Source of the DNA: Eledone cirrhosa
Taxonomy: Eukaryota
Direction of reading: 5' to 3'
Length of the DNA: 64,000 nucleotides
Assembly (NCBI GenBank): GCA_964016885.1
Contig: OZ024741.1
Span: 341,744,001 to 341,808,000, forward strand
In this document: positions 5,921 to 63,431 of the stretch, in pieces
How the letters are laid out: each line of letters starts with the position of its first letter
Position numbering within the stretch: position 1 is the stretch's first letter
Notes under the pieces: model-generated
What the model was told of the DNA's origin: nothing
The model's input: the letters and a program-made list of their open reading frames with translations, nothing else
The model's database searches: none
Made by a program: the position numbers and the translations under genes

Positions 5921-6107
5921 TAATGAAGGAAATGTGGTAAGGAACCAGGTGGACCATAACGCACCAAAGTACTCAATACTTAGGGTAGTAGAGTGGGTAA
6001 TAGCAACGAGTAGGACCCCGACGGCTGAGTTCAAGCCGTTTCGACGGCTCCAGAATTAGCCGTCGAAACGGCTTGAACTCAGCTATCGGAGTCTTACTTG
6101 TTCCTAT
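5921..6107. mobile_element. fold-back pLTR-only unit of the PLE at 43613-45010, in (TA)n
   Basis: Near-identical to 8429-8603, 43613-43750 and 63293-63431; internal inverted arms carry the HHR 3' half (GAAACGGCTTGA.CTCAGCCGTC). Confidence 0.85.
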
Positions 6108-6464
6108 ATATATATATATATATATATATATATACACACATATATATACACACACACATATATATATATATATATATACACACACACACACACATATATA
6201 CACACACATCAACATCATTTAGCATCTGTTTTCCCTGCTAGAAAGGGTTGGACATGTCAGTACTCAAGCAGAGCAGTACATATATATGTGTATACATATG
6301 TATGTATGTATTAATGTTGTTATCATGATATAGAGTATCATTCAGTAGAGCACAGGATCATATATGAGGCCCCAGTCCACCTGGAGATCAGAAGTCCCAC
6401 TTGAATACTGATCAGTTTGTGACATGTCTAACTCTTGCTATCAGGAGAAACCCAACTTTAAACA

Positions 6465-7035
6465 ATGGTGATGATGGTGGTAGTGGTGGTGGTAGTGGTG
6501 GTGGTGGTAGTGGCAGCGGTGGTGGTGGTGTTGGTGGTGGTGTTGGTGGTGGTAGTGGCAGCGGTGGTGGTGGTGGTGGTGGTAGTAGTGGCAGCGGTGG
6601 TGGTGTTGGTGGTGGTAGTAGTGGCAGCGGTGGTGGTGTTGGTGGTGGCGGTGGTGGCAGCGGTGGTGGTGGTGGTGGTGGTGTAGTGGCAGTGGTGGTG
6701 TTGGTGGTGGTAGTGGCAGCGGTGGTGGTGGTGGTGGTAGTAGTGGCAGCGGTGGTGGTGTTGGTGGTGGTAGTGGCAGCGGTGGTGGTGGTGTTGGTGG
6801 TGGTAGTGGCAGCGGTGGTGGTGGTGGTAGTAGTGGCAGCGGTGGTATTGGTGGTGTAGTGGCAGCGGTGGTGTTGGTGGTGTAGTGGCTGCGGTGGTGT
6901 TGGTGTTGGTAGTGGTAGTGGCAGCGGTGGTGGTGGTGGTGGTGGTGGTTTTAGTGGCGGCGGTGGTGGTGGTGGTGGTGGTGGTGGTGGTAGTGGCGGC
7001 GGTGGTGTTGGTCGTGGCGGTGGTGGTTCTAGTGG
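6465..7035. repeat. (GGT/GGC/AGT)n microsatellite
   Basis: Trinucleotide array; the poly-G/P/V ORFs derive from it. Confidence 0.95.
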
Positions 7036-7816
7036 TATATTAATATACATTCCTCCCCTAAATTATATCCTACTGACTAAAAGAGAATACACAGGGTGTA
7101 GACATAAATATTAACAAAAGGACAAGATAGCCAAGGATGGAACATCTTCGATCAAAATCTTTTTGATCGGAGCTATTCTGGAGTAAAACAACAACATCAA
7201 CATCTAACAATAAATACTGCTTTATGACAACCATTGTGGTCATAAATCTATGATTTATACTTACTTAACTAACCTTACACACACACATACAAACACATAC
7301 ACACACAGGCATATGCATAACCAAAGAGAACATACAGATATACATGTACACACACATACAGATACAGACATAGACCTAGAGACATACTGACAGACAGACA
7401 CTCATACAAACACACACATATAGACAGACATATAGACAGAGAAACACATATACACACATACACATATACACACACAGACATACAGACACACAGATATTGT
7501 GACATAGAGAGACATAGAGATACGGTGACAGATAGATACACACACAAACAGAAATATACAGACACTCAGTCAAACGGACACACACACACACACATAGAGA
7601 CACACAGACACAGAGACATACAGACATACGCATCGAGACACACAGACAAATAGAGACATACAGACACATATAGACAGACAAAGTGTTGTTCTGCATCAAT
7701 CAAACTTCTATAATCTGACAAACAAACCCAAAAATCAACCTCCACAATAAAATATAAACTTTAAAGAAATCAACAACTAACAAGACATTGATTTAATATA
7801 TTTATATGTATATGCA

Positions 7817-8185
7817 TCATCATCATCATCATCATCATCATCATCGTTTAACGTCCATCTTCCACACTAGCATGGGTTTGGACAGGAATTGTCCCACTTG
7901 AGGCAAGATTTGTTGTCTTGCTCATATAGGACTGTCTGGCGGGTTTTCTACGGCTGGATGCCCTTCCTAACACTAACCATGTTTACAGTGTGGACTGGGA
8001 GGTTTTTACCATGTTACCTATACGGCCACATTACAGCCTGGACTGTGTGATTTTTTGTCGTGACACCTACACGACCTCATTTGTTTCGGACTGGATGTTG
8101 TGGTACCAACATAACTTTACATTGGAAGGGGTGGTGTGGATGGGGTGGGGGTAGTGGGACGGGGGTGTATTTTTGTTAGAGGTGC
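7817..8185 (-). mobile_element. RTE LINE 3' UTR fragment with (TGA)n tail
   Basis: Matches the 3' UTR of the RTE fragments at 41600-41995 and 50070-50432. Confidence 0.85.
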
Positions 8186-60100: not shown

Positions 60101-60356
60101 ATATATATATATATATATATATATATATATGTATATATATATGTATATATATATATATATTGTATATATATATATATATATATACATATATATATATATA
60201 TATGTATATATATATATATATATACATATATATATATATATATATATATATACATATATATATATATATATGTATATATATATATAATATATAATACATA
60301 TATATATATATATATGTATATATATATATATACATATATATATATATATATATATG

Positions 60357-60858
60357 AGGGAGACAAGCTACTGGGAGAGGCTGAAGGAACTGAACCTCTA
60401 CTCCTGGAGCGAAGACGGGAGAGATACGCAGTGATCTACATGTGGAAAATCCTGGAGGGACTAGCACCAAACTTTGGCATTGGGAGCTGGACCAACCGTC
60501 GAACAGGACGTCACTGTGTGGTGCCAAAGGTCCCGTCTTCCACATCTAGAATAAGGAGCAGGTATTGCAATAGCCTGGGATTCAAGGGCCCTCAACTCTT
60601 CAACAGGCTGCGAGGCATCTGCGAGACTTGCATGACGTGGAGGTGGATGTCTTTAAGAAACATCTCGACACCTTGTTATCCAGGATCCCGGATGAGCCCA
60701 CAGCAAGACACGAGGAAACCTAAGGGCAGCAGCAACAAACTCCCTCCTACACCAGTGGCCAACCTATACAGGCTGGAGATAAAATGTGTAGCAACAAGGG
60801 GCGGTGCCCCAGCATGGCCTCAGCCGGATGGCTGAAACAGGTAAAAGAGTAAAAGAGT
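60357..60858 (+). mobile_element. CR1/L2-like LINE 3' fragment
   Basis: [30 protein letters not shown]...[11 protein letters not shown]; short (GTAAAAGA)2 tail. Confidence 0.8.
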
Positions 60859-63292
60859 ATATATATATACATATATATATATCATATATATACAATATAT
60901 ATATATATATATATATATACATATATATATATATACATATATATATATATATATATATGTATATATATATATATATACATATATATATATATACATATAT
61001 GTATATATATATATATATATACATATATATATATATATATATATATATGTATATATATATATATATATATACATATATATATATATATATATATATATAC
61101 ATATATATATATATATATATATATATACATATATATATATATATATATACATATATATATATATATATATGTATATATATATATATGTATATATATATAT
61201 ATATGTATATATATATATATATATATATGTATATATATATATATATATATATGTATGTATATATATATATATATATTATATATATATGTATGTATATATA
61301 TATATATATATATATATATATGTATGTATATATATATATATATATATATGTATGAATATATATATTATATATATATATATATGTATATATATATATGTAT
61401 ATATATATATGTATATATATATATATATATATATATGTATGTATATATATATATATATGTATGTATATATATATATATGTATATATATATATATATATAT
61501 ATGTATGTATATATATATATATATATATATATGTATATATATATGTATATATATATATGTATATATATATGTATATATATATATATGTATATATATATGT
61601 ATAATATATATATATGTATATATATATATATGTATATATATATATATGTATATATATATATATATATGTATATATATATATATGTATATATATATATATG
61701 TATATATATATATGTATATATATATATATATATATATATATATATATATATATATATATATATATATGTATAATATATATATATGTATATATATATTATA
61801 TATATATATATATATATATATATATATATTATATGTATATATATATATGTATATATATATATATGTATATATATATGTATATATATGTATATATATATAT
61901 GTAATATATATGTATATATATATAGATGTATATAGTATATATATATGTATATATATATGTATATATATATGTATATATATATTTATATGTATATATATAT
62001 ATATGTATATATATATATATGTATATATATAAATATATATATATGTATATATATACATATATATATGTATATATATATATACAAATATACATATATATAT
62101 AATACATATAATATATACATATATATATACATATATATCTACATATATATAATATATAATATAATATATACACATATATATATACATATATATATACATA
62201 TATATATACATATATATATACATATATATATACATATATATATATACATATATATAATAGTATATATATATACATATATATATATATATACATATATATA
62301 TATATAACATATATATATATATATATATATATACATATATATACATATATATATATATATACATATATATATATATACATATATATATATATATATATAT
62401 ATACATATATATATATATACATATATATATATATACATATATATATATATATATATACATATATATATATATACATATATATATATATACATATATATAT
62501 ATATATATACATATATATATATATAATACAATATATATATATATATATATACATATATACATATATATATATATATATATAAACATATATATATATATAT
62601 ATATATATATATACATATATACATATATATATATATATTATATATATTACATATATATATATATATATATACATATTATACATATATATATATATATATA
62701 CATATATTATATATATATACATATATATATATACATATATATATATATATACATATATATATATATATACATATATATATATATATACATATATATATAT
62801 ATATATACATATATATATATATATACACATATATTATATATATACACATATATATATATATACATATATATATATATATATACATATATATATATATATA
62901 TATACATATATATATATATACATATATATATATATATATACATATATATATATATATATACATATATATATATATATACATATATATATACAATATATAT
63001 ATACATATATATATACATATATATACATATATATATAATATACATATATATATATATATATACATATATATACATATATATATATATACATATATATATA
63101 TATATATATATATACATATATATATACATATATATATATATATATATACATAATATATATATATATATATACATATATATATATATATACATATATATAT
63201 ATATACATATATATATATATATACATATATATATATATATATATATAATATATATATATATATATATATATATATATATATATATATATATA

Positions 63293-63431
63293 TAACGAAG
63301 GAAATGTGGTAAGGAACCAGGTGGACCATAACGCACCAAAGTACTCAATACTTAGGGTAGTAGAGTGGGTAATAGGAACGAGTAGGACCCCGACGGCTGA
63401 GCTCAAGCCGTTTCGATGGCTAATTCTGGAC
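63293..63431 (-). mobile_element. pLTR fragment (family of 43613)
   Basis: Near-identical to 43613-43750. Confidence 0.9.

Follow-up and report, generated by a model that had tools for sequence, protein, structure and literature searches.

A duplicated hairpin borders the 3' ends of Hydra-clade Penelope-like elements and probably directs where reverse transcription begins

Penelope-like elements (PLEs) are the closest retroelement kin of telomerase. The anole PLE Poseidon encodes a protein that starts reverse transcription at two internal RNA sites bounding the tail, and this reaction needs RNA up to +172, downstream of the start at +111-118 (PMC11167929). The Hydra clade of PLEs is marked, in the excerpted text of PMC8557442, by RW(K/R) and DKT motifs, a CxCX5C linker, the lack of CCHH, a hammerhead ribozyme, (TA)n targets and fold-backs with a tail at one end only. 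Small stem-loops that adjoin the start of reverse transcription are described for stringent LINEs and SINEs (UnaL2, SART1), where they are held to be needed for template recognition (PMC3747384), and helices adjacent to the template are described for telomerase RNA (PMC4993307) and for the DRT10 ncRNA, as SL5 (PMC12632851).

We analysed a window of 64,000 nt from the Eledone cirrhosa genome, in which a sequence-only reading had noticed a recurrent box, RTWGAGTRC, and had proposed it as a second conserved cis-element of PLEs beside the hammerhead. The box is indeed enriched in the window (15 matches against 3.87 ± 1.87 in the dinucleotide-shuffled background; 0 of 100 shuffles reached 15), and the proposed sites comprise 14 of these 15 matches, the other one, at 34829, having no (TA)n close by. 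All 18 proposed sites carry a GAGT-core box, with the 9-mer given exactly for 14 of them and misquoted for four (20292, 32419, 38683 and 45118). Its placement was also correctly described: in the window loci the box follows the hammerhead on the same strand, it is confined to the longer arm of fold-backs, and the first (TA)3 follows 42-63 nt downstream in the 12 boxes measured. The motif is real; however, it is not a linear box. It makes up the 3' strand of a hairpin, and the 5' arm had been overlooked (Table 1). The supposed minus-strand box at 45118 is instead part of a plus-strand hairpin ahead of the ATG that opens a Hydra ORF, and among the sites that retain the GAGT core, those at 42524 and 53214 are degenerate, and at 52639 an insertion has taken the place of the 5' arm.

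Table 1. Features of the window related to the hairpin and its carrier families (positions in nt)
Feature	Position	Strand	Basis or remark
Hairpin 1, family A (Hydra-clade PLE)	46102..46123	-	sequence pattern
Hammerhead-type motif, family A	46170..46240	-	limits approximate; core starts 46229; motif, without Rfam match
Tail, family A	46042..46130	-	from short-end position to long 3' end at (TA)n junction
RT and GIY-YIG ORF, family A, Hydra-clade	47659..49313	-	5'-truncated, frameshifted; CxCX5C linker, without CCHH
Inverted short arm, family A	49293..49482	+	ends ahead of hairpin 1
Solo short-ended copy, family A	56096..56289	+	ends 7 nt ahead of hairpin 1
Hairpin 1, family B	10689..10715	-	hammerhead core 10820; long end near 10632
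Inverted short arm, family B	11776..11895	+	ends ahead of hairpin 1
Hairpin 1, family D	5969..5994	-	sequence pattern
Hairpin 1, family D	8478..8503	-	sequence pattern
Hairpin 1, family D	43660..43685	-	sequence pattern
Hairpin 1, family D	63341..63366	-	sequence pattern
Hairpin 1, family D relative	32419..32444	-	sequence pattern
Hairpin 1, family C	52207..52227	+	sequence pattern
Hairpin 1, family C relative	24741..24762	-	fold-back long arm
Hairpin 1, family C relative	20292..20313	-	last base mutated
Hairpin 1, family G	20848..20889	+	hammerhead core 20735
Hairpin, family E	20135..20161	+	upper stem decayed
Hairpin, family F	38683..38718	-	two hairpins in other copies
Hairpin 1 with one lower-stem mismatch	51447..51478	+	fold-back long arm; hammerhead cores 51347 (+) and 51241 (-)
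3' strand only	52639..52647	+	inserted repeat in place of 5' arm
Hairpin 2	45104..45121	+	followed by ATG 45142 and Hydra ORF N-terminus; minus-strand site 45118 is its reverse complement
Degenerate hairpin, possible member	53201..53222	+	pattern; 1-nt bulge
Degenerate candidate, possible member	42493..42532	+	pattern

The hairpin follows the pattern RCTC-Y-[variable stem-loop]-R-TH-GAGY-RC, forming a small bulged structure of 20-30 nt with fixed bases, a fixed bulge and loops that range from 4 to 62 nt. It has more than 100,000 matches in the E. cirrhosa genome. Covarying structure, a check that the sequence-only reading had suggested, was found across families: matched arm patterns occurred 83,303 times in the genome against 1,795 in the control, and a second matched set 19,100 times against 606, while a mismatched arm pattern gave 3,129 against 1,508. 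Upper-stem pairs outside the selection were paired in 45 of 58, 37 of 46 and 23 of 36 cases (permutation p < 0.001), and a blind alignment contained 37 double-change cells against 15.6 ± 4.0, a value as high in 0 of 500 shuffles; a MAFFT alignment of isolated hairpins was set aside, as it misaligned the arms. Thermodynamic stability is weak, with z from -2.1 to +0.4 for hairpins alone and from -3.4 to +1.6 for twin regions. Rfam returned 0 matches at the gathering score in 19 junction-bearing loci; for the window, the 150 of 262 matches listed contained nothing beyond sub-threshold similarity to miRNA families. The openly accessible literature searched yielded no earlier description of the hairpin. 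A coding explanation (I/V-E-Y/C) was ruled out, as the arms are out of frame, the spacers are of any length and the element lies upstream of the ATG.

The hairpin is kept while the reverse transcriptases (RTs) of its carriers are 31-89% identical (median 47). All six carrier families that could be tied to an ORF (A, B, C, D, G and I) belong to the Hydra clade. The family A ORF, of 779 aa, encodes an RT followed by a C-terminal GIY-YIG endonuclease and aligned over residues 4-700 of P0008. All six families have RW[K/R/T/I] and DKT in place of DKG; the ORFs of A, B and G, as well as Hydra-type segments inside the C and I loci, have the CxCX5C linker and lack CCHH; and the insertion target is (TA)n. 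Families A, B, C, G and I and the metagenome junctions show a hammerhead core with stems, without Rfam match, and no canonical core was seen in families D and E. In a tree drawn without the published Hydra references, 29 carriers split from five other PLEs with 100/99 support. The carriers had been described as otherwise unrelated; in fact the sites at 5969, 8478, 43660 and 63341 represent one family, with 32419 a relative, and the ORF-tied families are all of one clade. Descent from one diverged family, which had been offered as a refutation, was ruled out as the source of the shared motif: the spacers are unalignable and the RTs share 41-59% identity among the six genome families, although these form a single clade all the same.

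Outside this clade, the box occurred within 1.5 kb of 0 of 30 GIY-YIG loci of other families, which are mostly a few Neptune-type families, some with 3' ends perhaps further off. By eye, the hairpin is absent from the 9.3-kb and 24-kb elements of the window, which are two other PLEs, and from junction L452. Within the Hydra clade, inspection by eye revealed no clear hairpin in the published Hydra-1_Obim consensus. Among the 20 places listed for Naiad, Chlamys and Hydra consensi, pLTR-type matches came only from Hydra. We conclude that, as far as tested, the hairpin is restricted to the Hydra clade and is not the Penelope-wide element first proposed.

Full-length tandem junctions have the order hammerhead, hairpin 1, spacer, hairpin 2, ATG. 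Of 30 intact junctions in metagenome contigs, 28 have at least two hairpins, compared with 3 of 600 shuffles. Five of six families of the E. cirrhosa genome also have at least two, with a reduced hairpin 2 in family C; the two are spaced 67 to 99 nt apart. The 3' ends of genomic copies fall at most 16 nt upstream of one or the other in 125 of 130 cases from six families (51 at hairpin 1 and 74 at hairpin 2), the remaining five falling elsewhere. In 864 kb picked independently of the motif, 26 of 26 ends do so. The offset measures 6-9 nt in most cases, and TA microhomology extends over 2-3 nt; in family A, for example, the long end lies 9 nt ahead of the hairpin 2 position in full-length copies. 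Ten ends in metagenome contigs map at 0 to -8 nt. Because the ends cluster just upstream of either hairpin, the known Penelope tail corresponds to the sequence from one hairpin to the other, and 3' ends normally lack hairpin 2. The 40-65 nt reported between box and (TA)n likewise arises because a second, uncopied hairpin copy sits beyond the junction.

The position of the ends, a few bases ahead of either hairpin, makes it likely that the pair marks the starting point of copying for the RT. We place at about two in three the probability that the pair directs the telomerase-like RT to its cDNA start sites, each RNA hairpin being a putative docking site for the RT-endonuclease. A transcript through a tandem junction would carry both hairpins, and the element's protein would bind one of them. 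The nicked (TA)n would then anneal to the UA-rich patch immediately 5' of the bound hairpin, and cDNA synthesis would run away from this hairpin, leaving it uncopied. A start at hairpin 1 would produce the short end and a start at hairpin 2 the long end, with the tail as the distance between them. Against the model stand the weak folding of the hairpins, the five ends that fall elsewhere, the reduced hairpin 2 of family C, the family F copies that end past a second hairpin, the lack of a clear hairpin in the Hydra-1_Obim consensus and of the motif in the printed anole RNA; the modest G-U excess also leaves single-stranded DNA as a conceivable alternative to RNA. The data support a second cis-element beside the hammerhead, though a structured and duplicated one in place of a linear box, and of the functions originally listed for it, RT recognition or priming fits best.

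This docking model agrees with in vitro work on anole Poseidon, which identified two internal start sites (PMC11167929). Under the model, the two systems are alike in that two positions just past the hammerhead bound the tail, downstream RNA is required and targets are AT-rich. Poseidon, however, belongs to another clade, its sites lie inside the ORF, and only an 'AC-rich stem loop' is named there, with no repeated or conserved signal; inspection by eye did not reveal the Hydra motif in the anole RNA sequence that the paper prints. The account of the Hydra clade in PMC8557442, as excerpted, does not describe a second element and gives a tail of 30-40 bp (for Naiads and PLEs generally), compared with 57-99 nt here. 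Like the Hydra hairpin, the stem-loops of stringent LINEs are small, covary, contain a few invariant bases and adjoin the site, putative in Hydra elements, at which the RT begins. In contrast, a LINE has one such stem-loop, located upstream of the start and copied in every insertion (PMC3747384), whereas Hydra copies end upstream of a doubled hairpin, and the one in use would stay uncopied. The telomerase and DRT10 helices are likewise adjacent to the template, have conserved stem-base positions and serve RTs of the same wider group; unlike the Hydra hairpin, which lies 3' of the start and would set the beginning of copying, they lie 5' of the template and set its stop (PMC4993307, PMC12632851). 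We claim neither sequence nor structural homology with them.

It is also possible, though on balance we doubt it, that a telomerase-like RT-endonuclease acts as a dimer, with one subunit docking on each of the two hairpins. Each subunit would prime from one nicked (TA)n strand, one per hairpin, and a single event would build a fold-back with a long and a short arm. In this dimer, the start signal would be downstream and uncopied, and therefore only transcripts crossing a tandem junction would be full templates. If true, one mechanism would account for the tail, for the inverted arms and for the requirement of tandem pLTRs.

The same end positions could arise in other ways. The hairpins, which fold as DNA too, might be read as DNA by the GIY-YIG endonuclease, which would recognise single-stranded cDNA or an extruded tandem intermediate and cut just upstream, so that the ends reflect resolution and not RT initiation. 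Craig et al. ascribed the tail to endonuclease-mediated resolution (PMC8557442, as excerpted), and the D. virilis endonuclease depended on a tail being present in the plasmid DNA (Pyatkov 2004, as cited in PMC11167929). We consider this unlikely: the anole protein starts at the tail boundaries on RNA in vitro (PMC11167929), wobble pairs lean towards the sense strand as RNA, with a modest excess of G-U over A-C in the stems, and the spread of loop lengths speaks against a double-stranded site.

Cleavage of the transcript just 5' of each hairpin, by a host nuclease or the element's protein, would account equally for the ends if target-primed reverse transcription began at the new 3' end, and anole RNA-seq read ends do coincide with the RT start sites. 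The anole protein, however, starts internally on uncut RNA, with a product unaffected by extra 3' sequence (PMC11167929), and we hold such processing to be improbable. Finally, the hairpins sit 13-56 nt upstream of the ATG and might serve the 5' leader, in translation of the uncapped ribozyme-cut RNA, in autoregulation or as an internal promoter like that of D. virilis Penelope (PMC2377424, as excerpted), with the ends clustering only through the UA-rich patches that precede them. This is very improbable, as the hairpins keep a tight offset to the ends but lie at variable distances from the ATG, and other TA-rich patches of the same leaders are not used as ends.

Returning to the docking of an RT-endonuclease on RNA hairpins, the finding bears on how PLEs choose their template and why copying begins at two internal sites. 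With invariant bases, a constant bulge and a ruler distance that can be measured, the hairpins make the question testable with few mutants. They also allow both ends of Hydra elements to be annotated by rule and, if portable, would provide a short tag by which an RT-endonuclease is directed to upstream RNA as its template.

Individual families vary in the second hairpin. Strict searches for hairpin 2 after long ends gave 1 against 0 in the control for family C and 2 against 3 for family I, and looser searches found a reduced stem in the former and a 62-nt inner loop in the latter, where the predicted hairpin 2 is located past the long end. The family C hairpin 2 has only a 4-bp stem and a 5-nt loop, and its long ends nonetheless map as sharply. 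No third hairpin was seen in copies of family F, which carry two hairpins and mostly end 55-60 nt past the second. Separately, contigs from four public runs (two samples, one study), which are perhaps of the same species and carry little weight, show (TA)n loose ends where hairpin 1 begins and, for hairpin 2, 12 nt ahead of it.

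The conserved box RTWGAGTRC is the 3' half of a bulged hairpin, with a TACTCY arm upstream of most boxes. A box with the GAGT core was present at all 18 coordinates given by the sequence-only reading, 14 of whose 18 quoted 9-mers were exact and the remaining four not. In line with its claim of a recurrent motif, RTWGAGTRC occurs 15 times in the window versus 3.87 ± 1.87 expected from shuffling; (TA)n is plentiful there (source genome 3.0 Gb). Both the position of the box 3' of the hammerhead and its place in the longer arm of fold-backs were confirmed, while 45118, assigned to the minus strand, proved to be a plus-strand element read in reverse complement.

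Genome-wide, a pattern with A-T pairing gave 83,303 matches versus 1,795 for the reversed pattern, one with G-C pairing 19,100 versus 606 for its control, and a mismatched one 3,129 versus 1,508, the patterns differing slightly in length and the counts being dominated by large families. From 63 hairpins, chosen one family at a time, we obtained the consensus RCTC-Y-[inner]-R-TH-GAGY-RC, with T next in 59 of 63 and T as the invariable first base of the bulge. The first pair was G-C in 49, A-T in 9 and T-A in 2, and the pair above the bulge C-G in 41 and T-A in 21, counts that are partly circular because the descriptor itself demanded both pairs; the next three pairs, which lay outside this selection, were formed in 45/58, 37/46 and 23/36 (permutation p < 0.001). 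Folding energies were weak. When 19 whole junctions were blindly aligned with MAFFT, the sole conserved islands were the hammerhead core and two hairpins. The named structure had 88.9% paired cells (versus 80.4 ± 1.4) and 37 double changes (versus 15.6 ± 4.0; 0/500 shuffles), and two further measures on this alignment were not significant (120/500 and 87/500 shuffles).

Judged by sequence, the hairpin carriers are Hydra-clade PLEs. One box in the window terminates an element whose ORF contains a CxCX5C linker but no CCHH motif, both features of this clade in the accessible text of PMC8557442. An ORF with RW(K/R/T/I) and DKT follows in each of families A, B, C, D, G and I, and an RT tree separated 29 carriers from 5 other PLEs with support of 100/99 (RT identities 31-89%, median 47). 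The suggestion of a second cis-element was supported; its occurrence throughout PLEs was not, as the box was absent within 1.5 kb at 30 GIY-YIG loci of other families (0/30). It was also not found at the window elements at 9.3 and 24 kb. By eye, among six published Hydra consensi (PMC8557442 File S7, accessible portion), Hydra-2_Amil (coral) and Hydra-2_Ajap (sea cucumber) have the hairpin downstream of the hammerhead, Hydra-1_Ajap has two at its start, a variant is seen in Hydra-1_Crog (copepod), and no clear copy is visible in Hydra-1_Amil or Hydra-1_Obim.

The hairpin is duplicated. Full-length family A reads hammerhead, hairpin 1, ~65 nt, hairpin 2, ~20 nt, ATG. A twin pattern gave 8,731 matches versus 1,338 for the control, with many minisatellites among the matches listed. 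In a metagenome set of 78 loci, 29 provided 30 intact junctions, of which our own descriptor found two hairpins in 27, three in one and one in two; two hairpins arose by chance in 3/600 shuffles, and the 28 junctions with two hairpins formed 20 clusters. These junctions span 45-67 nt from the second hammerhead core to the start of hairpin 1, 57-83 nt between hairpin starts and 13-56 nt from hairpin 2 to the ATG. Locus L257 has TCTC/GAGA versions at both places. Checked for the predicted hairpin 2, family I has it, with an inner loop of 62 nt, and family C has merely a 4-bp stem.

The 3' ends track these hairpins. The (TA)n runs of all fetched genome loci were anchored onto six natural junction copies by an ungapped 32-nt match, which misses diverged copies; of 186 anchors, 56 that were TA runs within the reference itself were removed, leaving 130. 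Of these ends, 51 lay ≤16 nt upstream of hairpin 1 (short ends), 74 ≤16 nt upstream of hairpin 2 (long ends) and 5 elsewhere, with both 16-nt windows together making up ~1/9 of each reference and many loci having been fetched by hairpin patterns, a bias toward long ends. In 864 kb that was not motif-selected, 10 ends were at hairpin 1, 16 at hairpin 2 and 0 elsewhere. The modal end-to-hairpin offset is 6-9 nt, with TA microhomology of 2-3 nt. Among the 18 alignment ends listed for metagenome contigs, 10 precede a hairpin by 0-8 nt, 5 coincide with the end of a contig, 1 hits the same end a second time and the other 2 break off early in diverged relatives. In the window, each of the five fold-back units read by eye pairs a long with a short arm. 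The twin hairpin accounts for the position of both ends of Hydra-clade elements.

We infer, with a probability of about 0.65, that each hairpin of a Hydra element would act as a docking site, with the start just upstream of it. According to the accessible text of PMC11167929, the anole Poseidon protein, a predicted dimer, nicks and extends both strands; its RT starts at two internal sites bounding the tail, requires RNA to +172 and can dispense with hammerhead cleavage. Family C, family F and the 5 stray ends run counter to a simple docking model. That the endonuclease instead recognises the hairpins at the DNA level appears unlikely; a role as RNA-processing signals is slightly less probable again, and a leader function for hairpins lying between hammerhead and ATG is the most doubtful of all.

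A hairpin used for docking would work like the stringent LINE 3' stem-loop (PMC3747384) and the template-adjacent helix of telomerase RNA (PMC4993307; also PMC12632851), as the accessible parts of these papers describe them. In contrast to both, it occurs twice, stays uncopied and is located on the opposite side of the start, and it is therefore a member of neither group. Rfam gave no match for the hairpin junctions. The accessible portions of PMC4209133, PMC8557442 (including supplement), PMC7229834, PMC13282606 and bioRxiv 10.64898/2026.07.22.740005 do not describe a twin hairpin, nor did a description surface in literature searches, as far as freely accessible papers and supplements go. The twin RNA hairpin of Hydra-clade PLEs is real and apparently undescribed.

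Locations of elements and related features (L-numbers, fetched loci; G000:C1 and G000:C2, genome contigs)
Location	Feature	Observation
Window 46102; 49313-47659	Element ended by a box; its ORF	
Window 38683; L105, L106, L290, L300, L301	Family F copies	Two hairpins; end mostly 55-60 nt past the second, which may reflect another rule or an additional, third hairpin
Window 5969-6100, 8478-8600	Families D, E	Upstream of hairpin, hammerhead core of canonical form not visible; may have a variant or different ribozyme
Window 8324, 45828; L433:958, L439:6686, L437:5525	Further hammerhead families with hairpin	3' dinucleotide changed in two; short arms stop just before hairpin
L218:2802-3082	Two distinct Hydra families	Share one (TA)n tract in head-to-head orientation; each stops just before its hairpin 2
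L294	Families B and G	Long end of B joined directly to hairpin 1 of G
L177-L180, L208-L210 (G000:C1:14.23-14.27 Mb)	Minisatellite	58-bp unit: family-D-like hairpin plus spacer with short TA run at its end
G000:C2:169702714-169703475	Family I tandem	Units ~183 bp
Window 21834-24150; L452:600-830	Non-Hydra PLE family	Two 3' ends ~42 nt apart, Hydra hairpin absent; 7-nt direct repeat and small hairpin after each end (by eye, one family)
L435, L436, L439, L445, L447	Neptune-type family	Short and long ends ~47 nt apart, AC-rich stem-loop between them, reminiscent of the anole element (by eye)
Window 35598-37576, 16086-17355, 53727-54690	Other retroelement remains	RTE-like LINE with PHD finger; further PLE-like RT fragment; second broken Hydra ORF

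On the anole RNA as printed in the accessible part of PMC11167929, inspection by eye suggests a possible bulged hairpin from ~+121, just 3' of the +111-118 start window.
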